Origin: a plasmid
Length of the DNA stretch: 64,000 nt
NCBI RefSeq assembly: GCF_054482595.1
Contig: NZ_JBTHVH010000001.1
Strand: one strand, 5' to 3'
Position 1 is the stretch's first letter. The number at the start of each line of letters is the position of its first letter. The notes under the pieces are model-generated. The model was not told the DNA's origin, ran no database searches, and saw only the letters and a list, made by a program, of their open reading frames with translations. Positions 4,729-34,656 of the stretch are shown here, one piece after another. The translations under genes were made by a program, and so were the position numbers.

Positions 4729-4744
4729 CCAATGAGGAGGGCAT

Positions 4745-5436: not shown

Positions 5437-5445
5437 GGGGGATGC

Positions 5446-6174: not shown

Positions 6175-6177
6175 ACC

Positions 6178-8304: not shown

Positions 8305-8493
8305 ATGAAAAACCGTAAAGCAAAGATTCTGTTAGTTCGTAGAAACGCTCCTGGCGTCTGGCAGTGGGTGAGACTCAGCAACCGACGGATGGGGTTAATG
8401 AAACATTACGGGATGATGGATTGTGGTTTTTGCAAAAAGCCCAGCGCGGCGCAAAACCGCTGGAAAAACCACTTGCGCACTAAAGGAGAGTGA
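8305..8493 (+). CDS. hypothetical small basic protein (62 aa)
   Basis: AGGAGA SD upstream of ATG. Confidence 0.35.
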   Translation: MKNRKAKILLVRRNAPGVWQWVRLSNRRMGLMKHYGMMDCGFCKKPSAAQNRWKNHLRTKGE

Positions 8494-8495
8494 TA

Positions 8496-9010: not shown

Positions 9011-9915
9011 TCACTATTACCAAAGAGCGACTACTGACAATCAAGCAGTGGCGCGAAACATACGGACCTGGTAGCAACGTTGTACTGCCAGCAGAAGAAG
9101 CGGAAGAACTGGCACGAATTGCTCTGGCATCGCTGGAGCAGAATGTACTATCGGGCAACTCTCCGCTTATTCCTGGTGAAGTGTTGTCCGCAATCCGGGA
9201 GGTTGCCAGGATTCGTGCCGATTTCGATGATTTTGACGGTGACAGGCGAGGTATCGGTGATTGTCTGGATGAGGCCGAGCAAGAGCTTATCGTTACCATT
9301 AACAAATATGCCAGTCAGTTGGCAGCAGAACCGATAGCGACTAATGACGTTCGAGAGCAAACAGCCGTTCCGCCAATACAGGCTGATGTCGCGCAAGCAA
9401 TTGAAAATCTCAAGCAGAAGTTAGTGGAATGCAATCGCTATAACTACTGCGCAGATGCAGTGAAGAACGTAGAGGATGCCTGCCGTGCTGTTAGCTATAG
9501 CCAAGCCGACAATCAGCCAGCATCTGGCAACCAGGCTGCCGAATCCAATCGCGGTAATGAGTGGACTGGCAATCCTGATATTGATAACGCCATCATCATG
9601 CTCGACCGCATAGATACGCTGGAAAATTGCGATGATGACCGTATTGAGGCTGTTAAGGCTGTTTTGCGTAGACTGGCTGGCAACTCTCCGGTAACTCCGG
9701 ATGGTTGGATAAGCTGTAGTGAGCGAATGCCGGATACCAAAACAGCCGTTCTTGTTGCCAGGGAGTTTGACAGGAAAGGTGACTGGCGAATGAAATGGGC
9801 GACTTACATCCCGGGGCATCCTGACGCTAATGATGGGTGGGTAATACCTGGTGCGTCGTGGATTCCATCACACTGGATGCCGCTACCAGAACCGCCGCAG
9901 GAGGTGAATCAATGA
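9007..9915 (+). CDS. hypothetical protein with DUF551-like C-terminus
   Basis: 302 aa; C-terminal DGWISCSERMPD...HWMPLPEPP resembles DUF551. Confidence 0.55.
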   Translation: MITITKERLLTIKQWRETYGPGSNVVLPAEEAEELARIALASLEQNVLSGNSPLIPGEVLSAIREVARIRADFDDFDGDRRGIGDCLDEAEQELIVTINKYASQLAAEPIATNDVREQTAVPPIQADVAQAIENLKQKLVECNRYNYCADAVKNVEDACRAVSYSQADNQPASGNQAAESNRGNEWTGNPDIDNAIIMLDRIDTLENCDDDRIEAVKAVLRRLAGNSPVTPDGWISCSERMPDTKTAVLVAREFDRKGDWRMKWATYIPGHPDANDGWVIPGASWIPSHWMPLPEPPQEVNQ

Positions 9916-18291: not shown

Positions 18292-18308
18292 TTTGCTCTA
18301 ATAAATTG
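18292..18308 (+). promoter_or_regulatory. C1 operator-like site upstream of icd/ant module
   Basis: TTTGCTCTAATAAATTG, 15/17 to consensus. Confidence 0.6.
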
Positions 18309-18438
18309 TGTTTTTTAACTACCGATGTTACATTGAACCTGACCTCTTGCGCCTTGAGGCATTTTCGGTTTATGCTTATCAGGCACCTCAGTAAAACGGG
18401 TGCCGGGATTGGCCTCCCGCTTAAGTCTAAGGCGATAC

Positions 18439-18462
18439 AGACGCCGCTCGCGTCTTTTTTTT
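18439..18462 (+). terminator. terminator-like hairpin inside the ant leader
   Basis: agacgc cgctc gcgtct followed by T7 run. Confidence 0.45.
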
Positions 18463-18479
18463 GTATCGGCGTACACGCA

Positions 18480-18600
18480 CACCTCTACAATGGTGGGCTG
18501 TATGGGGCTACCTTCGGGTAGGCTGGTTACCTTGGACGCCAGTAAGGCCAACTCCGTACAGTCCACCGCCAGCAAGATTGGTCTCTTCTGCGGTGGTTAC
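18480..18600 (+). ncRNA. candidate c4-like antisense RNA region (boundaries not resolved)
   Basis: UUCG-loop hairpin ggctaccttcgggtaggc; CCTTGGACG (18530..18538) near-complementary to GTCTAAGG at the icd SD. Confidence 0.25.
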
Positions 18601-18627
18601 ATACCAACGTCTAAGGAGGCTGCCAAT

Positions 18628-18849
18628 ATGGCTACTATCCCTACCCCAACTCATCCTGAATTTATCTGGCGCTTTTACTCCTGCCAAAAACGTCACTATC
18701 ACTTCGTTATTGCACCGACAGAAGATGAGGCACGTTCTCAGCTTCCTGACGCCCCATGTATTTTCTCTGCCCGTTTTTCCACTGATTCACGCAATTCTCT
18801 CAGTTACTGGTGCCTCCCTGTTAACGCTTCTGCTCAGGAGGGACTATGA
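18628..18849 (+). CDS. icd: Icd-like small protein (73 aa)
   Basis: ORF whose stop overlaps ant start (ATGA); AGGAGG SD. Confidence 0.55.
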   Translation: MATIPTPTHPEFIWRFYSCQKRHYHFVIAPTEDEARSQLPDAPCIFSARFSTDSRNSLSYWCLPVNASAQEGL

Positions 18850-19964
18850 GAACATCGTTAGTTACCCGTGAAGAGATGATCGAGGCAATTGAACAGCACA
18901 CTGCCTGTATCAGTACCAGGGATATACCAGGCGTTATTGCCAACTACTTCATGATCACCAAACAACTTTACCGGAGAAAGGACAAGAACGCGGTTCACCG
19001 TATCCTGTTGTCTGATATCCGCGAATACCTGCTCGAACAGGGTCATCTGAATTACGCAACCGTCGCAGCCGAATCACGCAAGGAGGCACACAGAATGAAA
19101 GCAACTAACGTTAAATCAGAAAAAATTCATGCACCTTCAGTTCAGGAATCGGAGCTGGTGGTTGTTCAGAATCAGTCTGATGAAATTCCCGTTCTGGAAT
19201 GGCAGGGAGTGCGTGTAGTGACAACCGAGACTCTTGCTAGAGGGTATGGGACAGAAACAATCCGTATTCGCCAAAATCATCATGAGAACAAAGTACGCTT
19301 TGTTGAAGGGAAGCACTTTTTCAAAGTTGAAGGAGAATCATTGCGCGAGTTGAAGCACAGAGTAGCTTTAAACTACTCTGTAAAAATTGCTCGCAATGTT
19401 CGCTCACTCACCCTCTGGACAGAACGCGGCGCAGCCCGCCACGCTAAAATGCTCGAAACCGATCAGGCATGGGCATTCTTTGAAAAACTGGAAGACAGCT
19501 ACTTCCGACAAAAAGAACAGCAACCGATCGCAATCCCCCAAACATTACCAGAAGCCCTACGCCTGGCTGCCGAACTGGCTGAACAAAAGCAGCTTCTGGA
19601 ACAGAAAGCCCACCAGCTAAATCAGCAGCTGGTGGCCGCCGCTCCTAAGGTCGATTTTGCCGACCGGGTATCAGTAGCTAAAGGGATCCTGATTGGGAAT
19701 TTTGCAAAGGTTGTTGGACTTAAGCAAAACGCGCTGTTTGTCTGGTTACGGGAGAACGGCATCCTGATAGCGTCCGGTGGACGTAAAAATGTGCCGTTCC
19801 AGCAGTACATCAACGCGGGGTATTTCACGGTGAAAGAAGTGGTGCTGGATGATGAAGATGGCTACCAGATACGGTTGACGCCTCAATTAACGGGTAAAGG
19901 CCAGCAGTGGTTGACGCGTAAACTGCTCGATGCTGGCTTGTTAAAACCGGTGGCGGCTGAATAA
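18846..19964 (+). CDS. ant: antirepressor (central Rha/ORF6N-like domain, C-terminal KilAC-like domain)
   Basis: 372 aa; C-terminal FADRVSVAKGILIGNFAKVVGLKQNALF resembles KilAC/Ant C-terminal domain. Confidence 0.75.
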   Translation: MRTSLVTREEMIEAIEQHTACISTRDIPGVIANYFMITKQLYRRKDKNAVHRILLSDIREYLLEQGHLNYATVAAESRKEAHRMKATNVKSEKIHAPSVQESELVVVQNQSDEIPVLEWQGVRVVTTETLARGYGTETIRIRQNHHENKVRFVEGKHFFKVEGESLRELKHRVALNYSVKIARNVRSLTLWTERGAARHAKMLETDQAWAFFEKLEDSYFRQKEQQPIAIPQTLPEALRLAAELAEQKQLLEQKAHQLNQQLVAAAPKVDFADRVSVAKGILIGNFAKVVGLKQNALFVWLRENGILIASGGRKNVPFQQYINAGYFTVKEVVLDDEDGYQIRLTPQLTGKGQQWLTRKLLDAGLLKPVAAE

Positions 19965-22001: not shown

Positions 22002-23033
22002 ATGTCCAATTTACTGACCGTACACCAAAATTTGCCTGCATTACCGGTCGATGCAACGAGTGATGAGGTTCGCAAGAACCTGATGGACATGTTCAGGGAT
22101 CGCCAGGCGTTTTCTGAGCATACCTGGAAAATGCTTCTGTCCGTTTGCCGGTCGTGGGCGGCATGGTGCAAGTTGAATAACCGGAAATGGTTTCCCGCAG
22201 AACCTGAAGATGTTCGCGATTATCTTCTATATCTTCAGGCGCGCGGTCTGGCAGTAAAAACTATCCAGCAACATTTGGGCCAGCTAAACATGCTTCATCG
22301 TCGGTCCGGGCTGCCACGACCAAGTGACAGCAATGCTGTTTCACTGGTTATGCGGCGGATCCGAAAAGAAAACGTTGATGCCGGTGAACGTGCAAAACAG
22401 GCTCTAGCGTTCGAACGCACTGATTTCGACCAGGTTCGTTCACTCATGGAAAATAGCGATCGCTGCCAGGATATACGTAATCTGGCATTTCTGGGGATTG
22501 CTTATAACACCCTGTTACGTATAGCCGAAATTGCCAGGATCAGGGTTAAAGATATCTCACGTACTGACGGTGGGAGAATGTTAATCCATATTGGCAGAAC
22601 GAAAACGCTGGTTAGCACCGCAGGTGTAGAGAAGGCACTTAGCCTGGGGGTAACTAAACTAGTCGAGCGATGGATTTCTGTCTCTGGTGTGGCTGATGAT
22701 CCGAATAACTACTTGTTTTGCCGTGTCAGAAAAAATGGCGTAGCTGCGCCATCTGCCACCAGCCAGCTATCAACTCGCGCCCTGGAAGGGATTTTTGAAG
22801 CAACTCATCGATTGATTTACGGCGCTAAGGATGACTCTGGTCAGAGATACCTGGCCTGGTCTGGACACAGTGCCCGTGTCGGAGCCGCGCGAGATATGGC
22901 CCGCGCCGGAGTTTCAATACCGGAGATCATGCAAGCTGGTGGCTGGACCAACGTAAATATTGTCATGAACTATATCCGTAACCTGGATAGTGAAACAGGG
23001 GCAATGGTGCGCCTGCTGGAAGATGGCGATTAG
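22002..23033 (+). CDS. cre: Cre tyrosine recombinase
   Basis: 343-aa protein recognised as P1 Cre across its length. Confidence 0.98.
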   Translation: MSNLLTVHQNLPALPVDATSDEVRKNLMDMFRDRQAFSEHTWKMLLSVCRSWAAWCKLNNRKWFPAEPEDVRDYLLYLQARGLAVKTIQQHLGQLNMLHRRSGLPRPSDSNAVSLVMRRIRKENVDAGERAKQALAFERTDFDQVRSLMENSDRCQDIRNLAFLGIAYNTLLRIAEIARIRVKDISRTDGGRMLIHIGRTKTLVSTAGVEKALSLGVTKLVERWISVSGVADDPNNYLFCRVRKNGVAAPSATSQLSTRALEGIFEATHRLIYGAKDDSGQRYLAWSGHSARVGAARDMARAGVSIPEIMQAGGWTNVNIVMNYIRNLDSETGAMVRLLEDGD

Positions 23034-23083: not shown

Positions 23084-23395
23084 ATGAGAAAGAATTTCAA
23101 CATCGACGGAAAATATGTAGTGCTGTCAGTGAGCACTAATATTCAGTCGCCAGCCGTCATTGTCACTGTAAAGCTGAGCGATAGAATGCCTGATATTGAC
23201 TCAATATCCGTTGCGTTCCCTGTCAGAAGTATGCGTAGTGCTGAACATTTCGTGATGAATGCCACCGAGGAAGAAGCACGGCGCGGTTTTGCTAAAGTGA
23301 TGTCTGAGTTTGGCGAATTTTTGGGGCACGTTGACAAAGCCCTCTCAATCAGTTCAGCAAGATCCAAAGCATTAACAGCTTCCATGATGAAATAA
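23084..23395 (+). CDS. hypothetical protein (103 aa), cre-adjacent
   Basis: ORF preceded by operator-like site. Confidence 0.5.
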   Translation: MRKNFNIDGKYVVLSVSTNIQSPAVIVTVKLSDRMPDIDSISVAFPVRSMRSAEHFVMNATEEEARRGFAKVMSEFGEFLGHVDKALSISSARSKALTASMMK

Positions 23396-23623: not shown

Positions 23624-24676
23624 TCATTCAGCCGCCACCGGTTTTAACAAGCCAGCATCAAGTAGCTTGCGAGTCAACCACTGCTGGCCTTTACCCGTTA
23701 ATTGGGGCGTCAGCCGTATCTGGTAGCCATTTTCATCATCCAGCACCACTTCTTTCACCGTGAAATACCCGGCGTTGATGTACTGTTGGCGCGGTACGTT
23801 TTTGCGCGCACCAAAAGCCATGAGAATGCCGTTCTGGCGCAACCATGAGAAAAGGGCGTTTTGCTTCAGTCCAACGACCTTTGCAAAGTTCCCGATCAGG
23901 ATTCCATTAGCCACTGATACCCGAACGGCAAAATCGACTTTAGGGGCTGCGGCCACCAGCTGCTGATTTAGCTGGTGGGCTTTCTGTTCCAGAAGTTGCT
24001 TTTGTTCAGCCAGCTCGGCAGCCAGGCGCAGAGCTTCGGGGAGTGTTTGGGGGAGCACTGGAGAAGCAGTGTTAGCCTGCTGCAATTCCTCCAGTTTGTC
24101 GATCAGCGAACGGCGGACCGCTTTTGACTCGCGCGCGGCAACTCGCAGGGCTTGTTTGTAGGTCATGGAGATAGTTTCAGATGTTGTGTTGTTTAATTTT
24201 TGCACTACGAAAATTTCGTAGTACTCACCATCCAGTTCATCCTTAACTCTGGCAATAAAATCATTATTGCGAACTGGTTTTTCGCTGCATAATTTCCGCG
24301 CTTCATTGACCATCTTCAACAATGTTTGGCTGTCTATTGTGTCGCCGCTGTTGGGGATAACATTCACGGCTGGTGCAGTTGTTCCCAAAGACTTCGTAAC
24401 TACAGCGTCTGGTTTGCTTGCTTTCATTCTGTGTGCCTCCTTGCGTGTTTCGGCTGCGACGGTTGCGTAATTCAGATGCCCCTGTTCGAGCAGGTATTCA
24501 CGGATATCGGTTAGCAGAATGCGGTGAACCGCGTGTTTGTCCTTTCTCCGGTAAAGTTGTTTGGTGATCATGAAGTAGTTGGCAATAACGCCTGGTATAT
24601 CCCTGGTACTGATACAGGCAGTGTGCTGTTCAATTGCCTCGATCATCTCTTCACGGGTGACTAATGACGTTCTCAT
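23624..24676 (-). CDS. antirepressor paralog with alternative central domain
   Basis: 350 aa; first ~85 aa and last ~110 aa nearly identical to 18846..19964 product, middle unrelated. Confidence 0.7.
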   Translation of the reverse strand: MRTSLVTREEMIEAIEQHTACISTRDIPGVIANYFMITKQLYRRKDKHAVHRILLTDIREYLLEQGHLNYATVAAETRKEAHRMKASKPDAVVTKSLGTTAPAVNVIPNSGDTIDSQTLLKMVNEARKLCSEKPVRNNDFIARVKDELDGEYYEIFVVQKLNNTTSETISMTYKQALRVAARESKAVRRSLIDKLEELQQANTASPVLPQTLPEALRLAAELAEQKQLLEQKAHQLNQQLVAAAPKVDFAVRVSVANGILIGNFAKVVGLKQNALFSWLRQNGILMAFGARKNVPRQQYINAGYFTVKEVVLDDENGYQIRLTPQLTGKGQQWLTRKLLDAGLLKPVAAE

Positions 24677-24894
24677 AGTCCCTCCTGAGCAGAAGCGTTA
24701 ACAGGGAGGCACCAGTAACTGAGAGAATTGCGCAAATCGGTAGAAAAGCGGGCAGAGAAAATACAGGGAGCATCCGGAAGCTGAGAACGTGCCTCATCTT
24801 CTGTTGGTGCGATAACGAAGTGATAGTGACGTTTCTGGCAGGAGTAAAAGCGCCAGATAAATTCAGGGCGTGCGCAAGGATTGGCATTAACCAT
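24673..24894 (-). CDS. Icd-like small protein, second copy (73 aa)
   Basis: Same architecture as 18628..18849; differs in first ~10 residues. Confidence 0.55.
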   Translation of the reverse strand: MVNANPCARPEFIWRFYSCQKRHYHFVIAPTEDEARSQLPDAPCIFSARFSTDLRNSLSYWCLPVNASAQEGL

Positions 24895-24899
24895 AGTTA

Positions 24900-25205
24900 C
24901 GGCCTCATGTACAGGTTTAACAACCTGCTATCCGCTGCTAAACGGGTGGCAGGACGTGACGGGGTTAGCAGACTGGCGTACATGAAACCAGCAGGCCGAA
25001 GCCTCCCCATCACGCCCCACCATAATTCGGGCGTAACGTGGTTTTACGGACACAAAAATACCGCAATATCGGATATCTGCGGTTGTCCGCATGTACATTC
25101 AGGCTGCTAAACCCGGTCGCAGAATTTGCTACGACGGCGGAACTATAAGCCTGAATGACAGGAAGATCAATAGTCTGGCGTTCAATGGTAGTATTTTTGC
25201 TCCAA
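24900..25205 (-). ncRNA. candidate c4-like antisense RNA region of second module (boundaries not resolved)
   Basis: Leader between operator and icd-like ORF; UUCG-loop hairpin gaggcttcggcct; sequence unrelated to forward-copy leader. Confidence 0.2.
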
Positions 25206-25211
25206 TAAATC

Positions 25212-25228
25212 AAATCTATTAGAGCAAT
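25212..25228 (-). promoter_or_regulatory. C1 operator-like site upstream of second icd/ant module
   Basis: aaatctattagagcaat. Confidence 0.6.
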
Positions 25229-25370
25229 AAATTATTATCCCAAGCTTTACAGTGCGCTGTAAAATTCAAACCTTCGGGTCAGTGGCGGAATCGTATTTCA
25301 CTCACGGAATGAGTATTATTAGTTTTGTCATACATAGCTAGGTAATGAATCACTTGAAGGAACTACGAAC

Positions 25371-26171
25371 ATGTCCGTGACCATTAGCGTCCTGCTGGAA
25401 AACAGACTTAAGCTTGGAGTTAAAAACTCGCTGCGTGCTAAAGCAGGACTTAGTCTGTTGATACAGGATGAAAACGATTCAATCCTGTTTGATACTGGGC
25501 CTGATGATAGCTTCATGTATAACGCAGGTTTAATGGGGGTCGATTTGACAAAACTGACCGCAGTTGTACTTTCCCATGGTCACTATGACCACTGCGGAGG
25601 TGTTCCGTGGATACCAGACACATGCAGGATAATATGCCATCCTATGGTGTCGGATGAGCGCTATTCGGCAATCAGGTTTTTAGGCTATACCGCCAGAATA
25701 AAAAAATTATCATTACATAATGATTTTTCACGTTTCCGCATGGAATACAGCAACACACCATTGCATATCAGTGAGCGTTTTATGTGGTCAGGAGAGATCC
25801 CTGTTGCCAGGCCACGCGCTTACGGTGTTATCGGGTGTAAGAATACGAAAGAAGATTACGTAAAAGATGAGGGGGTTTTAATTTATAAATCAGACTATGG
25901 GTTGATCATTTTTATCGGTTGTGGTCATTGCGGGGTAATTGATATTGTGCGCCACTGCCAAAATATAACCGGGATAAATCATATTCATGCAATTTTTGGT
26001 GGTCTTCATCTGCGCTGTGCGTCCCCTCTTATGCTCTGGAAGGTGAGACAGTTCTTACGCCTTCATAAACCAGATAAGATAATGGGGTGTCATTGTACTG
26101 GCAAATGGGGACGCTTGTGGTTACCGGAATCAACCTCTCCGGCAACAGGTGATGTTTATGTTCTTGGATAG
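25371..26171 (+). CDS. metallo-beta-lactamase-fold hydrolase (266 aa)
   Basis: HxHxDH motif SHGHYDHCGG preceded by ILFDTGPD; lower GC than backbone. Confidence 0.75.
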   Translation: MSVTISVLLENRLKLGVKNSLRAKAGLSLLIQDENDSILFDTGPDDSFMYNAGLMGVDLTKLTAVVLSHGHYDHCGGVPWIPDTCRIICHPMVSDERYSAIRFLGYTARIKKLSLHNDFSRFRMEYSNTPLHISERFMWSGEIPVARPRAYGVIGCKNTKEDYVKDEGVLIYKSDYGLIIFIGCGHCGVIDIVRHCQNITGINHIHAIFGGLHLRCASPLMLWKVRQFLRLHKPDKIMGCHCTGKWGRLWLPESTSPATGDVYVLG

Positions 26172-26488
26172 ACATGGTGCTGTTTCTGTTCATGTCGATT
26201 GTGTGGTTGGGGGCAAGAAAGAATTCACCTTGCTGAATAAGTCAGAGATGGAGTTGCTGGCTGACGCCTATGAGATGGCAAACGTCATGCACTAATAAAT
26301 ATATTATTTTTAATGATAAATGATTGACAACTGACAAGTGACTTCAGCCAGAATCATCACACGCCCGGTACGGATGGATCCCTTTTCAAATATTCCATGG
26401 ACGGCACAGTCTGAGTACCGGGCGCTACCTTCAGTTGTATGTATTGCTAAGCCGCCGCTGGTGGCTTTTCTTTTTTGTAGGGGGCGCT

Positions 26489-27130
26489 ATGGATAAGAAA
26501 ATATGCGTTGTTTCGATGAGCGTCGGCAAACCGGCGTCAATGACTGCTGCATGGATCAATAACGAGCTGATAATGGCTGAGCGGACCAGCTACCCTGAAC
26601 GCCGCCGCGATATGGAACTCCAGCTGCTGCGCGAATTGCGAGAAAAAGAGGAAAAGGGGTTTATCGTGCTGGTGGAAGAGGAAAACAGCTTTATTACTGG
26701 TCGAGTTGGCCAGCGTGTAAGGTTGCGCGATCCCTTCATGAACGGCAGGCCGGTACTAATTGAGGCAATGCAGATTTATAAGGAGTTGGAACGCCAGAAA
26801 GCAATCAAGTTACCGCGCAAGGAATCCGGCAAATACATCCTCCACCAAAGCATCTTCGATTCCGAACACGATAAAAAAGGCGATGAATTTTTCAACATCA
26901 ACTGGAGCGAAATAACGACAGAGCATGTTCTGACGTTACTATGTTGCTTTGCGACGGAATACAACAACGTTGCCAGCGCCGACTACATCAGGGCAATGGC
27001 TGGAGAAGTTGAGGCACGCCAGGAACCATCGTTACTAAGCCCTCTGATTAACATAATTCGCAGAACCCAAACACTGGCGCAAAAACAAGTACCACAAGGG
27101 GAATTGACGGGTAAAGGTAATTATCTCTGA
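26489..27130 (+). CDS. hypothetical protein (213 aa)
   Basis: ATG with AGGGGG SD inside ORF-track ORF 26435..27130; no recognisable motif. Confidence 0.55.
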   Translation: MDKKICVVSMSVGKPASMTAAWINNELIMAERTSYPERRRDMELQLLRELREKEEKGFIVLVEEENSFITGRVGQRVRLRDPFMNGRPVLIEAMQIYKELERQKAIKLPRKESGKYILHQSIFDSEHDKKGDEFFNINWSEITTEHVLTLLCCFATEYNNVASADYIRAMAGEVEARQEPSLLSPLINIIRRTQTLAQKQVPQGELTGKGNYL

Positions 27131-27169
27131 AAGATGCCCGGCGATAGACCGGGCAAAAGGGCGGAAAGT

Positions 27170-27418
27170 TTAATCAGCATTCAGGAGCAATGCGTTATCT
27201 ATGATGATCTGCTCCCATTCTTCGAATGCCCGATCGCGGACGCCCTGGGGAACACTGTTAGTTTTGAAATCGACGACCGTACGCCATTTCCCGTCCGGAC
27301 GGTACATGCGCAGAGCTTTACTTCCCCCTTCCCTGCGCACCTCAACGTTATGCTTGTCAGCAAACTCTTGTAATGCTCGTAACGTCCCATGCTTTACTGT
27401 GTAGTATCGCTTTTTCAA
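27170..27418 (-). CDS. lxc: Lxc/Bof-like C1 co-repressor modulator
   Basis: 82-aa ORF downstream of darB-ulx on same strand; assignment by size and synteny. Confidence 0.5.
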   Translation of the reverse strand: MKKRYYTVKHGTLRALQEFADKHNVEVRREGGSKALRMYRPDGKWRTVVDFKTNSVPQGVRDRAFEEWEQIIIDNALLLNAD

Positions 27419-27855
27419 GTTTTCTCTCCAGCCTGTGCCAAGGCTTCAACTTCCAAATCATAAGACTCAAACTCATAGTCCTGGTCGTCAACTTCTTCAG
27501 GCACTGGCAGTAAATGCCAGGCTGAGTATATCTGACCATTATCAAAACGCTCCTGGCTGTAGAGCGTAGCGGCTATGAGTGTTAGCGCCGGGCGGTCATA
27601 ACGGTAAATTTTGCGAACGTCACGGTCAACGAGACGACCGAAATTACCATAACCGCGCTCCAGTAATAATTTTTTAATTTCCGGCCAGTATGGACCATAG
27701 CTGCGGTACAGGCGGGGATTTTTCAGTAATCGCCCGCGTAGCCCTGACAGGAAGAAATCAACGTATTCGTCTTCTGTCTTTCCTAACAACGCCGTACGCA
27801 GTACCGCCTCAAGATATGTTTTATTCGGTTTTATTGTATCAGATAGTGTGGCCAT
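27415..27855 (-). CDS. ulx: Ulx-like protein (darB operon)
   Basis: 146-aa ORF between darB and lxc; synteny-based. Confidence 0.45.
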   Translation of the reverse strand: MATLSDTIKPNKTYLEAVLRTALLGKTEDEYVDFFLSGLRGRLLKNPRLYRSYGPYWPEIKKLLLERGYGNFGRLVDRDVRKIYRYDRPALTLIAATLYSQERFDNGQIYSAWHLLPVPEEVDDQDYEFESYDLEVEALAQAGEKT

Positions 27856-27888: not shown

Positions 27889-30800
27889 TTATGCGTATTG
27901 TTGGATGACGGCCAGAACGTCCGCCACGTTGTGTTTTGTCTCGATAATCCACCAGTTACCCGGGAAATCGCTGTTCTTTGCCTTCGCTGGCAGCCAGCGA
28001 GCGCCGAATTTCGCCTTGATTGCGTCTTTCGCACGGAAAAGAATGCCTTTCATGCCGGACGCCTCCTGAAGCCCAAATACCTCGCCAGCGGCGAATTTTG
28101 GTGCGTACATCATCTTCAGGTCGGCGGTGGATACGCGATAATTCAGACCAAGAGACTGAGCTATGCTGGTGGCATCACCCTGTATTGATGATAACTCTTC
28201 TTGTTTCTCGTTTCTGGCGGCAATTTCTTCCTCCGTGATGTTGCCAAGGGCCAGGTTTATCCGATCAGCGTCGGCCTGTTTCTCTTCATCGGTGCGCCCG
28301 GCAAGAACCGTGTTAATTCTCTGCAATATCTCCACATGATTCTTGCGCATGCTGAGCAATTCCGGCGTAACCTCGTTAAGATCCACCAGCCCAAGGATGG
28401 CAAGGTCGGAAAACATTGATACCAGGTTGTAGGTCATGCGATAGCTGAGTTGGCCATAGGCTGATGGCAACTGCACCGCATCCATTTTATAGGCATCCAT
28501 AAATTTAGAGCCGTCGTTTACGACATCCGCAATTGCCGGTGTGATTTTCCCTGTGGTGGCGGCCTCCCTGATTGCTGTTACCCACGATTGAGTCAGTGCG
28601 GCGACTGCATGATTCAGATTGGCTTCCCGTTCTGCTGCGATGCGCGCGCTTGCTGCGTCCATTGCCTGCTTGATCTCGGCTTTATTGCTGTAAATGCCAA
28701 TGGTGCCAAACTGTGCTGTGGTGATCTCATAATCTGACGCCCGGAACTCATGGGTACCGAAAATGGCATTGGTGACCTCAAGTTCAGAATCCCCGTTACG
28801 AGTAGCCCCCTGGCTTGTTTTCTCCGGCATTCTGGCGATCGCATCCGCTATTTTCTCCTGAATTGCTTCAGGGGATAGCGTATCTCCATATGACGCGATT
28901 ACATCGCCATAATTGGAGCCAAACAGTTCAGTCAGGAATACTTCTGCCAAACGGACCTGGCGGTTATTCCCTTCAGACATCATACCAAGCACCCATTTTG
29001 CAATTGACGACTTCAGCGCGCCGTCACGGCGATCCGGGTAAACCGCATGCTTCAGTGGGTCCGTATAGGTACCAACAAAATCAATGCTATAGCCTGACTC
29101 TGTAGTCTGAACGCCGTATGAGTCAGTGATTTTGATCATGCCGCGCTGCTGGAAACGGTAGAAATCGTCACAGGAAATGATGTCGTTAATCCCGGCGATG
29201 GAGACGCCACCACTGATTTTCTGCATAACAGCATCTTCATCGGGAGTTACATCCACCTGTTTATCCAGCGTCTTCACATCCCAGTTACCCGATTTGGTGC
29301 CTCTTAAGGTAAAGATGATCTCCACGTCTGCGCGCTGGCTGTCGAAGTCCAGCGACTTAATGCGAACGATATCACCGGCACAATCGTAGTATTGGCCTAC
29401 ACGCCATGAGCGATCGCCGATAACAAGGAACTCATTCGCATGGTTAACCAGATCAGGATCAACATCCAGAATGCCTTTATTTATTGCATCCTCCACCAGC
29501 GGGCGCAGGCGTTTGATATCCGTCGCGGCCTTCTGAGTACGGTTCAATAATTTCTCATAGCGGGAGATGGCCTGAGAGATATTAGCCTTGCGCTGAATGG
29601 CGCTTTTCAACGACGCGCGATACTGTGCTAACAACATACGGTCTGTGTGATGGACACTCCCCCAGCGGGCCTTCCAGTCTGCGTTATCCGCTGCCTTGGC
29701 CATTGCCGCCTGTTTGAATTTAGCTACCTCGGCGGTGGTCTTTTCAAGTTCCGCTTTGCTTCGCTCTAATTCAGCGGTAAGTACCTCCACATCCTCGCCA
29801 GCTGCGTGCTGCGCCTTGATGTAGTTCTGAAGGTCGATAGTAGCCTGTTCTTTCTGGCGAGCGCGTTTCGCAGCTTTCGCCTTATCCATTTGAACCTGCA
29901 TCATTGCCAGACGTTCGCCGTCATCCTTCGCGGTATACATCTGCATTTCGATCATGTCATTGGCGTCGGCGTTCTCCATTTCTGACTTATCTGAACGGAG
30001 GATATCGGAGATCCAGCCTGCTTTACGCTTCAGCGTCTTCAGTCGGTATTCATCGAAAGACCCCTTGCCGCAGTAGTAGTGAACGCGAACGCTTGCACGG
30101 TTGGAACCAACTCGGGCACCGCGACCGTTACGCTGTGCGATACTGGCTGGTGTCCACGGCAACGTCAGGTGGTGGATATCCGTCGTTCCTCGATGCAGGT
30201 TGATACCCACCTCTGCCTTTTTGTTGCAGATGATGATCGGAGTCCGGCCCTCCTGGAAGTCGGCTGCAATCTTTTCCAGACCGCCCAACGACATTTCATT
30301 TTGCTGCGCGATATAGGCGTCATACAGAGCCATTTGCTCGTTGTATTTCGCTATCTGTGCATCTGTTGGTTCATCCGGTAGCTCTTTCGGCGGTTTAACC
30401 GCTTTCAGTTTCTTACCGGTTTTACCTGCCTCGGCAACCGTCTGAGCATTCAGGATCCCCACCTTTGAAGGTTCAAGGTTTAGAGCATTGCAGATAATGC
30501 GCTTGAGCTTCTGGTGCTGCGTTTTTTCATCGGTGAAGATGATTTGCTTACCTTCCGGGAAAAACTCCTTCAGCGTGGCGATCAGCTTCGCGTATTTCGG
30601 CGTAACGGGGTGAGTTACGGTCTGTTCGTCAATGCCAAACCTGGCCAGGCGCTTATTCACTTCCTGCTCGAACGCTTCCGGAACCTGCAACTGAATAAAC
30701 TCGCCCTTATCTATCAGGGAGTATTGCGATTGCTGCGTGATTGAATCATCACTGTCGTCGTCTTCGCTGGTGGCTTGTTTAGGCAAACTGTCCGCCAGCT

Positions 30801-33800
30801 GCTGCACCGCATCGGCGTACTCCGGCAGGAAACGATAGGTGATCCGGCGATAGTACAGGTCCATGTCAGTACATACGCGGTCCATATCCCTGATTATTGA
30901 GAAGATCGGACGGGCTTTCTCGTGCTCAATCACGCCATCTTCATTGACCGAGGTCGTTACGCCATTGTTGGCTTTGGCCGCCGCTTCCGCCTGCTGACGC
31001 AATTCTTCATACGCCGCCAGTTGTTCTTCAGTAAGTGGTGCATCCTGCTGGTGTTCGTCCAGCTCCGGGATCTCCACGGTATCCTTAACGTCTTCCGCCG
31101 TTTTAAGCGTTACCCAGCGATGGAATATACCGCGCAGCGCATCAAGGTTTTCAAAGCCCACCAGCGCCATTTTTTCTTCAACTTCACCGCTAATTTTCTG
31201 TACCGTTTCCAGCCTGGTCTTGCCGAAGAATTTAACGAAGTCATCAGGACCGTAGATCCCCATGTTCTGCCAGTATTCCTTCGGCAGAACATGAGAAAGC
31301 ATGTTGTATGCATCGATCGGGGTGTTAACGACTGGCGTTGCAGTCAGGAGAACCGGCCCGCGCCCGCCATTCTTTTTCATCAGGTACGCGTTTTTAATTG
31401 CCATATCTCGCGCCGATTGCGCCACCGCGCTGGTGGGCAGATAGGCCAGTTGTGACGCTTCGCGACCATTTTTATAGCTATTGCGGTAGTTGTGACCTTC
31501 GTCAGCGATCACACTATCGAAGCCCATATCCTCAAAGTACGGATACTTCTCTGCTTTTTCGGTGCCGGTATCTGAATACTCCGACAATACCCGGCGACGC
31601 GCAGCCTCTTTGCGGTGGGAGTCGGAGTCCATTGCGCTGGCTACGCGCCCGGCGGCAACGAAGTCATAAAGCATATCCTGTGCATGCTCATCTACGGTGT
31701 CATCACGTAGCGGAATGCGGGCGTATTGTTCTTTGGTAAACACGACTGCACGGTAATTTGAGTGCGGGATCGCGTTCATCCGCGCCGTGATAGTGGCTTC
31801 ATCTGCCAGCTTAAGAGCATCGCGCATAACGGGAGTGCCATCTGCACCAACGACAGGTTTACCGTTCTCATCGAGCACCGGCACCAGGCGAATCTGATCG
31901 CCATCCATCAGCACATCAAGACCGACGAACAGGTAGTTACTGAATGCCTCTTCACTCAGAAACTCTTTTGCTTCGTAATACCAGTTTTCCAGCACTGATT
32001 TAGGCACTACATACGCAGTACGGGTGGAACGACCGTTCTCATAGTTGAACGCCTCAAGCGCCAGCGCGGTCGTGGTTTTACCCAGCCCGGTACCGAAGCC
32101 CAGGATGCCGCGCCCATCTTCGGACAGTCGGCGCACCTCGCTATTCTGGTAATCAAATGGCTGTCGCTTACCGCTTAATCCCTTCAACCCAAGCGGATCG
32201 CCAGAGTGTTCATACGGGATATTGCTATTGAACACATCGTTGTATTTGGCAACCAGCTCATCGTAGCGATCGTGCGTCTTGATCCACGTATTGAACTGGT
32301 CCTCAAGCAGTGCCATCTGCTCGCGGTAGCCGTTCGCCGTCGCGCTATCTTTGCCACCGATACGCGCACCATTGAGATACTTTTCCAGCTGTGCCGGGAA
32401 CCCGGTCGCGTTTTCACCTGATTTACGGTCCCACTCGTAGCGGATCTCGCCTGTTTCTTTATCCTTGCGCTGGACGACACCGTATCGGTGCCCGACGAAC
32501 AGACCATCACCACCGTGATAGGTGTCAGAAACCATTTCGTCGCCTTCCAGCTGCACTGACTGCACATAGCGCAGATCCGGATAGCCGTTTTCCTGCAAAA
32601 ATTCCAGAATCACGGAACGGTCGAACCAACGGCTATTGAGCTTAAACCGGATATTCTCTGCTGGCGTCTTGATGCGCTTCTCTTCGATCGCTGCCAGCTG
32701 ATTAAGGACGTTGTTCTTTACTGGACCGTCGGGGAGCGTGGCGAGGAATTCCTGTTTTGGAGCCACTATCTCGTTAATGTCGCCGCTGGTGGCGCGGGCG
32801 AACGGAACAATCCCGCCATACGGTGAAACCGCAATGCCAGGGGTGCTGGCCAATAAATTAAGCAACTCGTCATCACTGGCTGGCAGTTCGCCGGTAAACG
32901 CAAGGCGGAAATCATCGAGCTGGATTGGATCGCGGGTAAGATCGCTATAGAGATAACGCAGGGTGTCCTGATAGCTGGTGGAGTCATAACTGGCGCTGGA
33001 ATCATGCGTAACCAGCTTTCCTGTCAGCTCGTCAGAAATAGTGCCATCCAGCTTAATTGCACCACGGAAAGCAAACCAGGCGCGCGCACCGCTCCCCGAT
33101 AATTTCGCTATCGGACCGCGACCGGGGTTACCAAAACGGTCAATCTCTGCCTGCAAACGGGATACCAGAGAAAGGCGCTGCTGTTCGATTTGTTCAGCAC
33201 TATGCCCGGCGGCCTTCATGTCCTGATATTCAATTAACATCCGGCCAATCATCGCTCCGCGATACAAGCGTTCACGGTATTTTTCAGGCTGGCTGTTAAT
33301 CCAGTCCACCAGCTGCACCATATCGTCGCTGATTGATGTGGTGTACTTATCGCGGACATTTGCCATCTGGGTAAATGTCATACCGAGACGGCCTTCTGTT
33401 GTAGTCAGGTTACGCTGAAGAGCCTCCCAGCTATCCGCACCATAACTGGCAACCTCAATCTTCAGCTCCTTCCCGGCATCAGCTTCAATCCAGCGACCAC
33501 CAGCATATTTTTGCCATACGCCATTAATCAGGCGCATTTCCCCTTCATCAACAACATCTGCGGTCGGTGACGGTTCAGCCATATCGAGCAAAGACCAGTC
33601 GATACGACTTTCGAAACGATGAATCAGCTTCGCTTTAAGAGCCTGGTTATCAATCTGCCCGTCGGCACGAACCTCAATACGCCCCTGGAATCCCTTCTCC
33701 TGAGTGCCATGAACAAACCGGCGGCCGTCCTTTTCAAACCACTTGCCAGAAATAAACGTTGGCCAAAGCACATTTGCCGATTCAAGAGTGTCTTCATCCA

Positions 33801-34656
33801 CCAGGGGGATTTTCTCAGCCATCTCCGCCGGATGTTTGCGCATCAGCACCACGTCAACGACCGTACTGGTCCCGTTTGCGTCAAAAGTACCGGTAGGCAA
33901 GCGGTGGGCACCAAGAAATTCAGCTTTCCGTGATAGGCGCAGGCGTAACCGCTTCATGTTTGAACCTGAAACAATGGACGGCGGCACAATCACGCACATG
34001 AATCCGCCTGGCTTTATCTTGTCCAGCATGCGGAGCATGAAGTAAGAACCCATGTCCGTTTCTTCTGCGTAAGGCTTATCGATGTTGCGTGTGTTATCAC
34101 GACCACCGAACGGAACGTTACCCACAACATGGTCGAATGAATCGTTAGGCGTGCTTACAGCCAGTTGTTCGAACGGGGAAATCTGTACGCTGTCTTCCGG
34201 ATGTAACAGCTGGTTTATACGACCGGAAACACTGCTGATCTCAGTCGCGGTCATCACCGTACCAACCGGTTTTGTCTCATTAAAAACGCCGGTGCCCGCC
34301 GATGGTTCCAGAGTGTTACCTACGTCCGCGCCGTAGAGCTTCATGATCTCCCAGACACCTTCAGCGATCGGCTTTGGTGTGTAATATTCGGAGACGGACC
34401 CGCCAATGCCACCTTCACCGGTGTACCCAGCCAGGATCTGGCGCTGTTCATCTGTCAGTGTCGCGCCGTCCACCAGCGAATTAAGCAAATCTATCGCCTT
34501 CTGATTCGCCTCACGGCGCAGTCGGTCATAGCTTTTGCCTTCCACCTTTTCCACGCCGTATTTAATCGGCGCTCGGTGAGATGTTATTGCCCTAATGTAT
34601 TTCAATATTTCGCTGACACTTGAACAGCGAAACACCCCCATAGATAGCTTGTTCAT
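27889..34656 (-). CDS. darB: DarB antirestriction protein (methyltransferase + helicase domains)
   Basis: 2255-aa ORF; helicase motifs GFGTGLGKT and DEGHNYRN. Confidence 0.85.
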   Translation of the reverse strand: MNKLSMGVFRCSSVSEILKYIRAITSHRAPIKYGVEKVEGKSYDRLRREANQKAIDLLNSLVDGATLTDEQRQILAGYTGEGGIGGSVSEYYTPKPIAEGVWEIMKLYGADVGNTLEPSAGTGVFNETKPVGTVMTATEISSVSGRINQLLHPEDSVQISPFEQLAVSTPNDSFDHVVGNVPFGGRDNTRNIDKPYAEETDMGSYFMLRMLDKIKPGGFMCVIVPPSIVSGSNMKRLRLRLSRKAEFLGAHRLPTGTFDANGTSTVVDVVLMRKHPAEMAEKIPLVDEDTLESANVLWPTFISGKWFEKDGRRFVHGTQEKGFQGRIEVRADGQIDNQALKAKLIHRFESRIDWSLLDMAEPSPTADVVDEGEMRLINGVWQKYAGGRWIEADAGKELKIEVASYGADSWEALQRNLTTTEGRLGMTFTQMANVRDKYTTSISDDMVQLVDWINSQPEKYRERLYRGAMIGRMLIEYQDMKAAGHSAEQIEQQRLSLVSRLQAEIDRFGNPGRGPIAKLSGSGARAWFAFRGAIKLDGTISDELTGKLVTHDSSASYDSTSYQDTLRYLYSDLTRDPIQLDDFRLAFTGELPASDDELLNLLASTPGIAVSPYGGIVPFARATSGDINEIVAPKQEFLATLPDGPVKNNVLNQLAAIEEKRIKTPAENIRFKLNSRWFDRSVILEFLQENGYPDLRYVQSVQLEGDEMVSDTYHGGDGLFVGHRYGVVQRKDKETGEIRYEWDRKSGENATGFPAQLEKYLNGARIGGKDSATANGYREQMALLEDQFNTWIKTHDRYDELVAKYNDVFNSNIPYEHSGDPLGLKGLSGKRQPFDYQNSEVRRLSEDGRGILGFGTGLGKTTTALALEAFNYENGRSTRTAYVVPKSVLENWYYEAKEFLSEEAFSNYLFVGLDVLMDGDQIRLVPVLDENGKPVVGADGTPVMRDALKLADEATITARMNAIPHSNYRAVVFTKEQYARIPLRDDTVDEHAQDMLYDFVAAGRVASAMDSDSHRKEAARRRVLSEYSDTGTEKAEKYPYFEDMGFDSVIADEGHNYRNSYKNGREASQLAYLPTSAVAQSARDMAIKNAYLMKKNGGRGPVLLTATPVVNTPIDAYNMLSHVLPKEYWQNMGIYGPDDFVKFFGKTRLETVQKISGEVEEKMALVGFENLDALRGIFHRWVTLKTAEDVKDTVEIPELDEHQQDAPLTEEQLAAYEELRQQAEAAAKANNGVTTSVNEDGVIEHEKARPIFSIIRDMDRVCTDMDLYYRRITYRFLPEYADAVQQLADSLPKQATSEDDDSDDSITQQSQYSLIDKGEFIQLQVPEAFEQEVNKRLARFGIDEQTVTHPVTPKYAKLIATLKEFFPEGKQIIFTDEKTQHQKLKRIICNALNLEPSKVGILNAQTVAEAGKTGKKLKAVKPPKELPDEPTDAQIAKYNEQMALYDAYIAQQNEMSLGGLEKIAADFQEGRTPIIICNKKAEVGINLHRGTTDIHHLTLPWTPASIAQRNGRGARVGSNRASVRVHYYCGKGSFDEYRLKTLKRKAGWISDILRSDKSEMENADANDMIEMQMYTAKDDGERLAMMQVQMDKAKAAKRARQKEQATIDLQNYIKAQHAAGEDVEVLTAELERSKAELEKTTAEVAKFKQAAMAKAADNADWKARWGSVHHTDRMLLAQYRASLKSAIQRKANISQAISRYEKLLNRTQKAATDIKRLRPLVEDAINKGILDVDPDLVNHANEFLVIGDRSWRVGQYYDCAGDIVRIKSLDFDSQRADVEIIFTLRGTKSGNWDVKTLDKQVDVTPDEDAVMQKISGGVSIAGINDIISCDDFYRFQQRGMIKITDSYGVQTTESGYSIDFVGTYTDPLKHAVYPDRRDGALKSSIAKWVLGMMSEGNNRQVRLAEVFLTELFGSNYGDVIASYGDTLSPEAIQEKIADAIARMPEKTSQGATRNGDSELEVTNAIFGTHEFRASDYEITTAQFGTIGIYSNKAEIKQAMDAASARIAAEREANLNHAVAALTQSWVTAIREAATTGKITPAIADVVNDGSKFMDAYKMDAVQLPSAYGQLSYRMTYNLVSMFSDLAILGLVDLNEVTPELLSMRKNHVEILQRINTVLAGRTDEEKQADADRINLALGNITEEEIAARNEKQEELSSIQGDATSIAQSLGLNYRVSTADLKMMYAPKFAAGEVFGLQEASGMKGILFRAKDAIKAKFGARWLPAKAKNSDFPGNWWIIETKHNVADVLAVIQQYA

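Follow-up and report, generated by a model that had tools for sequence, protein, structure and literature searches.

A putative captured gene for a Tflp/COG1237-type metallo-β-lactamase-fold protein beside a predicted immI-like module in the ref slot of a P1-like phage-plasmid

The stretch of DNA analysed here, 64,000 nucleotides in length and referred to below as the window, belongs to a P1-like phage-plasmid, as a sequence-only reading of it had correctly recognized. Between cre/c8 on the left and lxc-ulx-darB on the right lie two open reading frames (ORFs) of 266 and 213 amino acids; that reading had placed them accurately between the cre-proximal block and lxc-ulx-darB and regarded them as a two-gene cargo. 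The features of this interval, together with the evidence for each, are as follows.

23624..24676, minus strand: ant-like antirepressor gene (350 aa), the distal gene of a second immI-like operon in the ref slot (PHROG 63, E 2.8e-112)
24673..24894, minus strand: icd-like gene, 73 aa (NCBIfam NF033153 phage_ICD_like, 49.8 bits versus a cut-off of 25)
24942..25027, minus strand: predicted C4 antisense RNA of the immI-like module (Rfam RF01695, 71.7 bits versus a gathering score of 45)
25096..25148, minus strand: predicted a1/b1 targets of the C4 RNA (Rfam RF03163, 55.5 bits versus 46.7)
25212..25228, minus strand: predicted C1 repressor operator of the immI-like operon (ATTGCTCTAATAGATTT, one mismatch to the operator consensus)
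25230..26185, plus strand: foreign low-GC segment of ~956 bp with one gene, found neither in P1 nor in the MBL-less plasmids L003-L005
25289..25370, plus strand: native upstream region (82 bp) that moved with the MBL gene (DNA homology to a plasmid of Enterobacter pasteurii and to a soil MAG starts at 25289)
25371..26171, plus strand: gene for a Tflp/COG1237-type metallo-β-lactamase (MBL)-fold metalloprotein, 266 aa (ORF, Pfam, profile and structure model)
26186..26295, plus strand: 3′ remnant of ref, a pseudogene fragment of 110 bp (P1 2528-2637) that ends at the ref stop codon
26286..26303, minus strand: Omat, predicted C1 operator controlling mat (by position, P1 2628-2645 via alignment A2)
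26324..26354, plus strand: predicted Pmat/LPmat promoter region (by position, P1 2666-2696; near-invariant in alignment A2)
26436..26443, plus strand: 4-bp tandem duplication relative to P1, TGTA TGTA (alignment A2)
26489..27130, plus strand: mat, maturation control protein, 213-aa form (P1 Mat homology, PHROG 1837, RefSeq name)
27100..27162, no strand: junction in place of the P1 res-mod-IS5 block (27099 is P1 3437 and 27163 is P1 9743)

The ORF of the 213-aa protein is real, but the earlier description of its product as unknown did not hold. Aligned with residues 38-250 of P1 Mat, the protein is identical at 203 of 213 positions (95%, E 3e-156); it also matches PHROG 1837 over positions 1-212 of 212 (E 5e-113), and RefSeq names the gene 'maturation control protein'. 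Its synteny is that of P1, 3′ of Omat/Pmat and on the cre side of lxc, and its DNA has the composition of the backbone. Judged by homology and position, the 213-aa protein is P1 Mat, a product of the backbone rather than of cargo. The sequence-only reading had itself named conservation of both genes in the P1 backbone as grounds for abandoning its proposal; this turned out to be true of one half of the pair, because the second gene is the conserved backbone gene mat.

P1 Mat (P1_gp006) differs from the protein in the window by an annotated N-terminal extension of 37 aa. Owing to the 4-bp duplication at 26436-26443, this extension is out of frame here, and the peptide MDPFSNIPWT is found in a separate 52-aa ORF (26338-26496). 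The mat ATG start sits inside a longer, 231-aa ORF with a TTG start; the 250-aa form annotated in P1 was not found in the window. Both RefSeq and PHROG 1837 use the 213-aa form. Because the related plasmid pRHB32-C05_4 carries a different frameshift, comparison of these sequences suggests that the functional form of Mat is the one of 213 aa.

Alignment with P1 and with related plasmids delimits what is foreign at this locus. On the left, homology with the MBL-less plasmids ends at 25228/25229 in the breakpoint alignment, and on the right it resumes at 26287; from 26186 on, the window is 95% identical to P1 and colinear with P1 2528-3437, starting with the ref remnant, which RefSeq labels a partial Ref family nuclease whose N-terminus is missing. 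Compared with the ref-mat-res-mod region of P1 (NC_005856 2077-9742), the two share their flanks, mat, Omat and the 110 bp at the end of ref, but the window lacks the ref body, res, mod and IS5. Where P1 has the body of ref, the window has the immI-like module and the MBL gene; 6.3 kb of P1 sequence (3438-9742: res, mod and IS5) is replaced by 63 bp, with no substitute genes. The notion of a gene pair in place of ref, mat, res and mod thus has to be given up, since mat is kept and only 25230-26185 is foreign. Likewise, the DNA was said to be AT-richer across both genes, which is correct for 25230-26185 (GC 0.431 versus 0.484 for the window) but not for mat (GC 0.481).

The locus had moreover been proposed as a hotspot for defence cargo. 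The interval from cre to lxc is indeed variable, yet the slot in which defence genes are truly exchanged is the one between mat and lxc: P1 has the EcoP1I res/mod genes there, pRHB32-C05_4 a type III res gene, pYZMc17-1 SIR2 and p779-3 DUF2971. In the window this slot is empty, and the MBL gene sits instead in the ref slot. Around the insert, no IS ends, target duplications or meaningful repeats were found, the sole similarity between its flanks being two C1-operator-like 13-mers.

Part of the ref slot is occupied by a second C1-controlled immI-like operon, comprising an operator, the a1/b1 targets, C4 RNA, icd and ant. The ant-like gene shares ~82% DNA identity with P1/P7 ant1; the PHROG 63 title is 'anti-repressor Ant', and the RefSeq name is KilAC antirepressor. 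Matches to the C1 operator consensus number 11 in the window, compared to 0.3 expected by chance. The MBL gene is flanked by two C1 operators, and it could be subject to lytic-phase regulation.

The MBL gene also stands out by its codon usage, with a GC3 of 0.42 versus 0.49-0.58 for cre, mat, ant and darB. The upstream region contains a small conserved palindrome, ACTCA-N5-TGAGT here and ACTCC-N6-GGAGT in relatives (alignment A4), and the gene is preceded by a TATTAT box and an AAGGAA ribosome-binding site. A convincing sigma-70 promoter was not found on the plus strand upstream of the gene, nor was a terminator between the gene and Pmat. Comparison with relatives gave dN/dS values of 0.10-0.125 (~0.11), as for an accessory gene that is intact and has been shaped by strong purifying selection. 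One of the 13 plasmid copies, from Shigella (NZ_CP058773), is frameshifted, which fits dispensability.

As to the protein itself, the MBL-fold ORF with its SHGHYDHCGG stretch (residues 68-77) was read correctly from the letters: Pfam Lactamase_B matches at 3e-15, and the Pfam scan lists only Lactamase_B, Lactamase_B_2 and ODP. Full-length phmmer matches were obtained to 2P4Z (2.6e-27) and 3H3E (2e-22). A profile of the family scored 1e-68, 3e-61 and 6e-47 against the PDB entries 2P4Z, 3H3E and 7DCK, respectively, covering 2P4Z (profile positions 2-265 of 274) and 3H3E (2-273) in full length and 7DCK in two stretches; the remaining PDB chains match over the N-terminal ~70 residues only, at 1e-9 or weaker. 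The AF2 model (pLDDT 96.3) gave the same order in Foldseek, with TM-scores of 0.87, 0.82 and 0.74 for these three structures and no more than 0.6 for the next match.

Among 70 diverse homologues, H69, H71, D73, H74, D166, C184, H186, H213, H241 and C242 are invariant or nearly so. The HxHxDH motif (H69-G-H71-Y-D73-H74) and the later His/Asp ligands are intact, and both hallmark cysteines described for Tflp (PMC7785958) are present: Cys184 at motif 4, where it replaces Asp, and Cys242 directly after the motif-5 His. C184 (GCGH) and H241-C242 (CHCTG) align with GCSH and HCTG of 2P4Z. With Tflp of Thermoanaerobacter tengcongensis (2P4Z), TM1679 (3H3E) and 'phosphodiesterase tw9814' (7DCK), to which it is homologous over the full length, the protein shares membership of the COG1237 subfamily, the fold, HxHxDH, the motif-4 Cys, the motif-5 His-Cys and a single domain of ~250-280 aa. 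We conclude that the 266-aa protein is a cytoplasmic Tflp/COG1237-type MBL-fold metalloprotein. Structural alignments to the three show only 18-25% identity, and unlike them the protein falls into a compact clade of Enterobacterales, which has the extra invariants C75, C89-H90-P91, C240 and W246/W250, and is carried by a phage-plasmid.

The two characterised relatives disagree with each other, Tflp being described as a ferredoxin-like di-iron/[Fe-S] protein and 7DCK as a phosphodiesterase. Literature searches for tw9814, and for 7DCK together with 'phosphodiesterase', returned nothing, and those for COG1237 and for STM2950, the putative Salmonella orthologue, returned one incidental table entry each. 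Some homologues bear the MJ0301-type name 'dihydropterin-aminobenzene phosphate synthase', solely as a source annotation. Enterobacterales are not known to contain methanopterin, so this name has probably been over-propagated.

Could the protein, like Tflp, be a redox protein, that is, a host metabolic accessory product using a Cys-ligated di-iron or [Fe-S] centre as electron carrier or oxidoreductase? The closest solved structure is that of Tflp, both Tflp-specific cysteines are invariant in the family, and an [Fe-S] centre was reported for Tflp under reducing conditions (PMC7785958). Against this, 7DCK has the same cysteines and was named a phosphodiesterase by its depositors, Tflp itself is a relative of 25% identity from a thermophilic Firmicute, and clustering of the genes around 79 species-level loci brought up no redox partner anywhere. 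We regard a redox role as unlikely, though worth keeping in mind.

Another reading of the Lactamase_B matches would be an antibiotic-resistance metallo-β-lactamase or an RNase Z/J-like nuclease carried as plasmid cargo. Resistance genes are frequent on P1-like plasmids (PMC10879196), and UniProt automatically names some homologues 'Beta-lactamase', 'Ribonuclease BN' or 'Ribonuclease Z'. However, the NCBIfam class B models scored only 15-21 bits against cut-offs of 100-560, and the RNase Z and RNase J models 15-20 bits against 250-820, with matches confined to the shared N-terminal motifs. There is no signal peptide; according to sequence and AF2 model, the protein opens with MSVTISVLLENR as β-strand 1. 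It consists of a single domain, without a β-CASP or RNA-binding domain, and its TM-scores to RNase Z, RNase J and β-CASP nucleases do not exceed 0.5. Nor does any PLSDB record with the MBL gene have a resistance-gene row under the match. Such an enzyme is hardly conceivable here.

The distribution of the gene is narrow on P1-like elements and broad on chromosomes. Copies with 100% identity are present in 12 of the 5,426 complete E. coli genomes, always on plasmids of 94-102 kb, and eight plasmids in PLSDB carry the gene; of the 380 E. coli genomes that match the segment at all, these 12 (~3%) contain the MBL gene and the other 368 match with the ref tail only. The closest DNA relatives are 85-87% identical; their homology begins no more than 82 bp 5′ of the gene and ends precisely at the stop codon. 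Homologues are single genes at genus-specific places, mostly housekeeping chromosomal sites but also ordinary plasmids. In Serratia, the homologue lies 3′ of mnmE, in Salmonella between queE and queD, and in Citrobacter it adjoins a two-component system and a molybdopterin reductase. The most frequent neighbour family was seen at no more than 13 of the 79 loci, each such case reflecting genus-specific synteny, and no conserved partner gene emerged from these loci beyond that level. A link to pterin or 7-deazaguanine metabolism through queE-MBL-queD was considered and rejected; the arrangement is unique to Salmonella, and we therefore treat it as a hotspot coincidence. A gene pair for an HTH-2TM and a DUF6622 protein recurs near homologues in only two elements, and an STP-type transporter with a 297-aa ORF in three; neither came into P1 with the MBL gene.

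These data also bear on the suggestion that a housekeeping MBL enzyme was co-opted to destroy nucleotide immune signals such as cCMP/cUMP or cyclic oligonucleotides, as an analogue of Apyc1 from another subfamily. The MBL fold with its intact two-metal site would be suitable, and the folds most similar to it outside its family are those of phosphodiesterases, among them Apyc1 (7U2S/7U2R, E ~1e-7, TM 0.53), YhfI and PhnP, just as the family member 7DCK bears the name of one. Precomputed Pfam annotation assigns weak or faint Anti-Pycsar_Apyc1 matches to homologues, and phages are known to have co-opted chromosomal Apyc1 (PMC11724313). Like Apyc1 of phage SBSphiJ, the protein belongs to the MBL superfamily, has the HxHxDH two-metal motif and a similar length, is encoded in a variable region of a phage-type element, in this case a temperate phage and beside the defence slot, and has chromosomal relatives. 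The closest of these (88%), found in Enterobacter wuhouensis, is part of an island bounded by an integrase that also carries AbiV, an HD protein and type I hsdR, so that a defence-related context exists for one relative.

Direct comparison, however, speaks against this role. BLASTP against SBSphiJ Apyc1 aligned just 27 residues around HxHxDH, hhalign spanned only the N-terminal 98 of ~260 columns, confining the alignment to motifs 1 and 2, and the catalytic E74 of Apyc1 (residue numbering as in PMC9117128) corresponds to Pro79; Y112 and the loop fall in an unaligned or low-confidence part of the hhalign alignment. The Pfam scan of the protein contained no Apyc1 match (PF23023), and the Cys ligands found here are missing from class II phosphodiesterases. 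The 266-aa protein is outside the Apyc1 family. Both blastn and tblastn searches of 50,697 phage records retrieved no homologue, BFVD yielded no structure above TM 0.5, and a pattern scan of IMG/VR returned a single relative of 28% identity, the latter being a weak negative because exact motif words were required. PADLOC gave nothing significant for the 266-aa protein (best RTasMBL, E 0.006, 13.7 bits; AbiEi, E 0.06) and no match for Mat. The rarity of the gene among matching E. coli genomes and the stable housekeeping sites of most homologues point the same way. The anti-CBASS/Pycsar or nuclease role once envisaged accordingly gained no support from Apyc1, RNase Z/J, PADLOC, phage records or housekeeping neighbourhoods. 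We consider destruction of immune signals improbable, and give similarly little credence to the version in which a housekeeping phosphodiesterase for small molecules or nucleotides has been recruited by this P1 lineage for counter-defence or signal quenching under both bracketing C1 operators.

Rather, the locus is probably a mosaic of P1 backbone and one recently captured gene for a stand-alone Tflp/COG1237-type MBL-fold enzyme. From the 100% identity among the P1-borne copies of 12 E. coli genomes, we infer a single, recent capture. The gene and 82 bp of upstream DNA would have been taken from an Enterobacter/Cedecea-like chromosome or an IncF-type plasmid by illegitimate recombination at the edges of the two C1 operators, and may since have spread with one lineage of P1-like plasmids, elements that swap many genes with plasmids (PMC10879196). 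Most likely, the protein acts like its chromosomal relatives, as a stand-alone two-metal small-molecule enzyme. Our best guess for its activity, drawn by analogy, would be phosphodiester hydrolysis, since a phosphodiesterase, 7DCK, is the only relative with a name, and PhnP, YhfI, Apyc1 and tRNase Z are the folds that come next. Expression in the lysogen is probably driven by a promoter belonging to the gene itself, which would serve for lysogenic conversion (a 'moron') or be a passenger instead of a dedicated anti-defence factor.

The chief value of this analysis is a correction: the supposed two-gene defence cargo resolves into a backbone gene and a captured enzyme gene. The latter represents a widespread and strongly conserved, yet uncharacterised, Cys-containing MBL subfamily of Salmonella, Serratia, Citrobacter, Photorhabdus and other genera, which is now also found on a transducing phage-plasmid circulating in E. 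coli from humans, pigs, chickens and wastewater. If the enzyme acts on nucleotide signals, the Apyc1 paradigm would reach another MBL subfamily; were its co-option for immune evasion true, this would be the first viral member of COG1237 and a second, independent MBL path to what Apyc1 achieves. Otherwise, the gene illustrates ordinary gene flow between plasmids and phage-plasmids.

The best-supported picture of the locus is a mosaic in which mat and its control region, as P1 backbone, adjoin a second immunity module and one captured accessory gene, all lying between flanking genes that are those of a P1-like element.

Features of the locus and its flanks
22002-23033: cre, left flank
23084-23395: c8, left flank
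23624-24676, minus strand: ant-like gene (PHROG 63)
24673-24894, minus strand: icd-like gene (NCBIfam)
24942-25027, minus strand: C4 antisense RNA (above the Rfam gathering threshold)
25096-25148, minus strand: a1/b1 targets (above the Rfam gathering threshold)
25212-25228, minus strand: C1 operator of the immI-like operon (1 mismatch to the consensus)
25371-26171, plus strand: 266-aa ORF, the MBL gene
27170-27418, minus strand: lxc, right flank
27415-27855, minus strand: ulx, right flank
27889-34656, minus strand: darB, right flank

The 266-aa ORF was found as predicted, with SHGHYDHCGG as residues 68-77. The AT-richness ascribed to the whole of 25230-27135 holds for this gene (GC 0.431 for 25230-26185 and 0.439 for the coding sequence, versus 0.484 for the window; GC3 0.42 versus 0.49-0.58 for cre, mat, ant and darB) and not for its neighbor mat, at 0.481.

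That neighbor, a 213-aa protein of unknown kind in the sequence-only reading, is P1 Mat. BLASTP aligned it with residues 38-250 of the P1 protein (NC_005856, 2716-3468) at 203/213 identities (E 3e-156), PHROG 1837 matches it end to end, and the identical gene in related plasmids bears the RefSeq name "maturation control protein." The surrounding stretch, 26186-27099, is colinear with P1 2528-3437 at 95% identity, covering the final 110 bp of ref as well as the C1 operator Omat and Pmat/LPmat; Mat belongs to the backbone and is no cargo protein. The 213-aa frame runs from an ATG at 26489 to 27130, nested in a 231-aa TTG-initiated ORF. Relative to P1, a 4-bp tandem duplication of TGTA (26436-26443) shifts the annotated 37-residue N-terminal extension of P1 Mat (250-aa start) out of frame, and in pRHB32-C05_4 the same leader is out of frame through a different change, a 1-bp deletion. 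Since the frame is thus broken in two different ways, the 213-aa form is probably the real Mat protein. Pmat is separated from the 213-aa start by a hairpin that resembles a terminator, with a T-run (26449-26467 and following), and the mat leader (26338-26500) may have a regulatory role, as an attenuator, instead of coding for protein.

Homology to P1 stops at 23621 (P1 2069, just 5′ of the ref start codon) and restarts at 26186 (P1 2528). The intervening 2.56 kb has two parts, first a second immI-type operon, which is complete and runs on the minus strand, and then the segment 25230-26185. Matches to the C1 operator number 11 in the window, versus 0.3 expected. In many P1-like plasmids, for example pRHB32-C05_4, pO111_2 and pLH50-c-C, the immI-like module abuts mat without the MBL gene. 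Against these, homology breaks at 25228/25229 and restarts at 26287, that is, where the immI-like operator and Omat have their outer ends, with ∼61 bp of theirs swapped for 1,057 bp. Because the MBL-less plasmids share both the module and mat, 25230-26185 is the sole truly foreign DNA in the interval, and it holds one gene rather than the proposed two. The cargo had been placed where P1 carries ref, mat, res and mod; in fact, the MBL gene occupies the ref slot, mat is retained, and res/mod are replaced by 63 bp.

Within a span of 7 kb, the window has two complete immI-like modules, one inserted between pacB and c1 (18292-19964, plus strand) and one in the ref slot (23624-25228, minus strand). 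Both comprise a C1 operator, an a1b1/isrK-like leader, C4 RNA and ant, icd being shown for the second only. P1 has neither at these two positions.

The replacement of P1 3438-9742 (res, mod and IS5) by 27100-27162 leaves the slot between mat and lxc, whose contents differ among plasmids.

Contents of the mat-lxc slot in other elements
P1: EcoP1I res/mod
pRHB32-C05_4: type III res gene
pYZMc17-1, carrying the same MBL gene (locus L001, 7783-9087): SIR2-family gene
p779-3, carrying the same MBL gene (locus L097, 4494-5504): DUF2971 gene

As these genes alternate there, mat-lxc is a real fast-turnover hotspot for defense genes, empty in the window. The MBL gene lies outside it. The slot's content varies among otherwise near-identical MBL-carrying plasmids.

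Elsewhere in the window, a 1,504-aa tail-fiber ORF (49625-54139, minus strand) is assembled from many different tail-fiber PHROG segments and looks like a mosaic host-range determinant. The P1 S protein is much shorter.

Neither the 961-bp segment (blastn) nor the MBL protein (tblastn) had a match in 50,697 phage records; BFVD held no viral structure above TM 0.5, and a motif-based scan of IMG/VR returned one relative at 28% identity. In PLSDB, the segment is present at 99.9-100% identity in eight P1-like plasmids, and the wider region has matches in ∼830 records. Of 5,426 complete E. coli genomes, 12 have a 100%-identical copy, each time on a plasmid of 94-102 kb, while another 368 match the ref tail only; the hosts, from several countries, include isolates of human, pig, chicken and wastewater origin. 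Near-identical copies on such plasmids in such varied settings point to a single recent capture, followed by spread with one plasmid lineage. One of the 13 plasmid copies, from Shigella flexneri (NZ_CP058773.1, 10197-11156), is unannotated, falls into two tblastn pieces and is probably frameshifted, which suggests that the plasmid can do without the gene.

The MBL protein belongs to a large family, with 3,115 cluster representatives at an E-value of 1e-10 or below and an Enterobacterales clade common in Salmonella, Serratia, Citrobacter, Kluyvera, Klebsiella, Edwardsiella, Photorhabdus and others; the LT2 homologue Q8ZME5 is 62% identical. The closest relatives (86-91% protein, 85-87% DNA identity) come from Enterobacter, Cedecea, an Enterobacteriaceae isolate, a soil MAG and an Enterobacter pasteurii IncF plasmid. 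With each of these, the DNA similarity stops exactly at the stop codon and reaches no more than 82 bp upstream of the gene, to 25289. The insert is bordered by neither IS ends nor target duplications. The upstream block is conserved, and in it a small palindrome (25296-25320) is retained with compensatory change (ACTCC-GGGAAT-GGAGT in relatives, ACTCA-CGGAA-TGAGT in the window), followed by TATTAT; it may be a hairpin, or a site bound by a regulator, that moved with the gene.

What does the gene encode? Pfam sees the N-terminal motifs only (Lactamase_B, 3e-15, residues 25-87), and PADLOC gave no significant match. Full-length homology was confined to three PDB entries, 2P4Z (2.6e-27), 3H3E/TM1679 (2e-22) and 7DCK. 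A 70-sequence profile strengthened these to 1e-68, 3e-61 and 6e-47, with all remaining chains matching the first ∼70 residues only, at 1e-9 or weaker. An AlphaFold2 model from the same alignment was very confident (pLDDT 96.3, pTM 0.93), and Foldseek placed it closest to 2P4Z (TM 0.87), 3H3E (0.82) and 7DCK, "phosphodiesterase tw9814" (0.74); after a clear gap came a PhnP-family diphosphatase, Apyc1, YhfI, tRNase Z, RNase J and an arylsulfatase (TM 0.4-0.6). 2P4Z is the structure of Tflp, an MBL protein described in its publication as "ferredoxin-like." [quoted passage not shown] Likewise, C184 (in GCGH) and C242 (in CHCTG) align to GCSH and HCTG of 2P4Z. Across the 70 homologues, down to 27% identity, H69, H71, D73, H74, D166, C184, H186, H213, H241 and C242 are invariant or nearly so, and dN/dS against seven relatives is 0.10-0.125. 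Given the full-length homology, fold, hallmark cysteines and dN/dS, the gene codes for an intact protein of the Tflp/COG1237 subfamily and has evolved under selection.

NCBIfam models for β-lactamase, RNase Z/J, AiiA and others scored 15-32 bits against cut-offs of 100-970 and gave no support to the nuclease role once considered. Apyc1 fared no better. With the protein of phage SBSphiJ as reference (LT960608; locus L098, 12867-13640; H64, H66, H69, E74 and Y112 numbered in agreement with Hobbs et al., PMC9117128), BLASTP aligned 27 residues around HxHxDH and profile-profile comparison 98 N-terminal columns only. The catalytic E74 corresponds to Pro79, and the structural likeness (TM 0.53) is at superfamily level only; among homologues, precomputed Apyc1 Pfam matches are "weak" or "faint," ranking below stronger Lactamase_B. 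Sequence, profile and fold together rule out membership of the Apyc1 family. The anti-CBASS/Pycsar-like idea, and with it any anti-defense reading, including an activity analogous to that of Apyc1, has no positive evidence in its favor, and we regard it as improbable.

We surveyed ORFs up to 5 kb away from the gene at 79 species-level loci. After clustering, the most widespread neighbor family occurred at no more than 13 of these, no neighbor pointed to a pathway, and the recurring families reflected genus-specific synteny.

Recurring neighbors by genus
Photorhabdus: α2-macroglobulin-like gene
Citrobacter: two-component system and molybdopterin reductase
Serratia: mnmE
Kluyvera: N-acetyltransferase and MgtE
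Salmonella: queE and queD

In Salmonella enterica subsp. diarizonae (locus L055, 6849-9248), the orthologue (62-64% identity) lies in the order mazG-pyrG-eno-queE-MBL-queD-cysJIH, a position seen in no other genus sampled; in some sources, the family goes by a pterin-related name. An Enterobacter wuhouensis homologue sits in an integrase-bounded island with AbiV, an HD protein and hsdR. IncF plasmids also carry homologues, and a 47%-identical paralogue occurs on ∼106 kb Enterobacter resistance plasmids, where an HTH/DUF6622 pair and an EAL c-di-GMP phosphodiesterase are its neighbors. Two distantly related copies of the gene (47% and 88% identity clades) adjoin an HTH(-2TM) regulator and a DUF6622 protein, on Enterobacter hormaechei pEho7-2 (L015, 6089-10013) and at locus L006 (6073-8801); on pEho7-2, the EAL-type enzyme is the divergent neighbor. 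These neighbors, absent from the P1-like plasmid's capture, may hint at a regulatory or signaling context. Overall, this is a stand-alone gene in mostly housekeeping-type neighborhoods, with occasional mobility.

The product would be a cytoplasmic two-metal enzyme with His, Asp and Cys ligands. By analogy with the name of 7DCK and the nearest folds outside the family, we favor activity as a small-molecule phosphodiesterase or esterase; a redox role like that of Tflp, whose cysteines it shares, is a serious alternative. The gene lies between two C1 operators, and no strong promoter was found for it. For the phage-plasmid, it is most likely a moron or passenger, gained via exchange with plasmids; such exchange between plasmids and P1-like phage-plasmids is frequent (PMC10879196). 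"MBL fold metallo-hydrolase" is already its RefSeq name in identical plasmids, and mat is already known from P1; the mildly new point is the presence of a Tflp/COG1237 member in a phage-type element, versus none among the 50,697 phage records.
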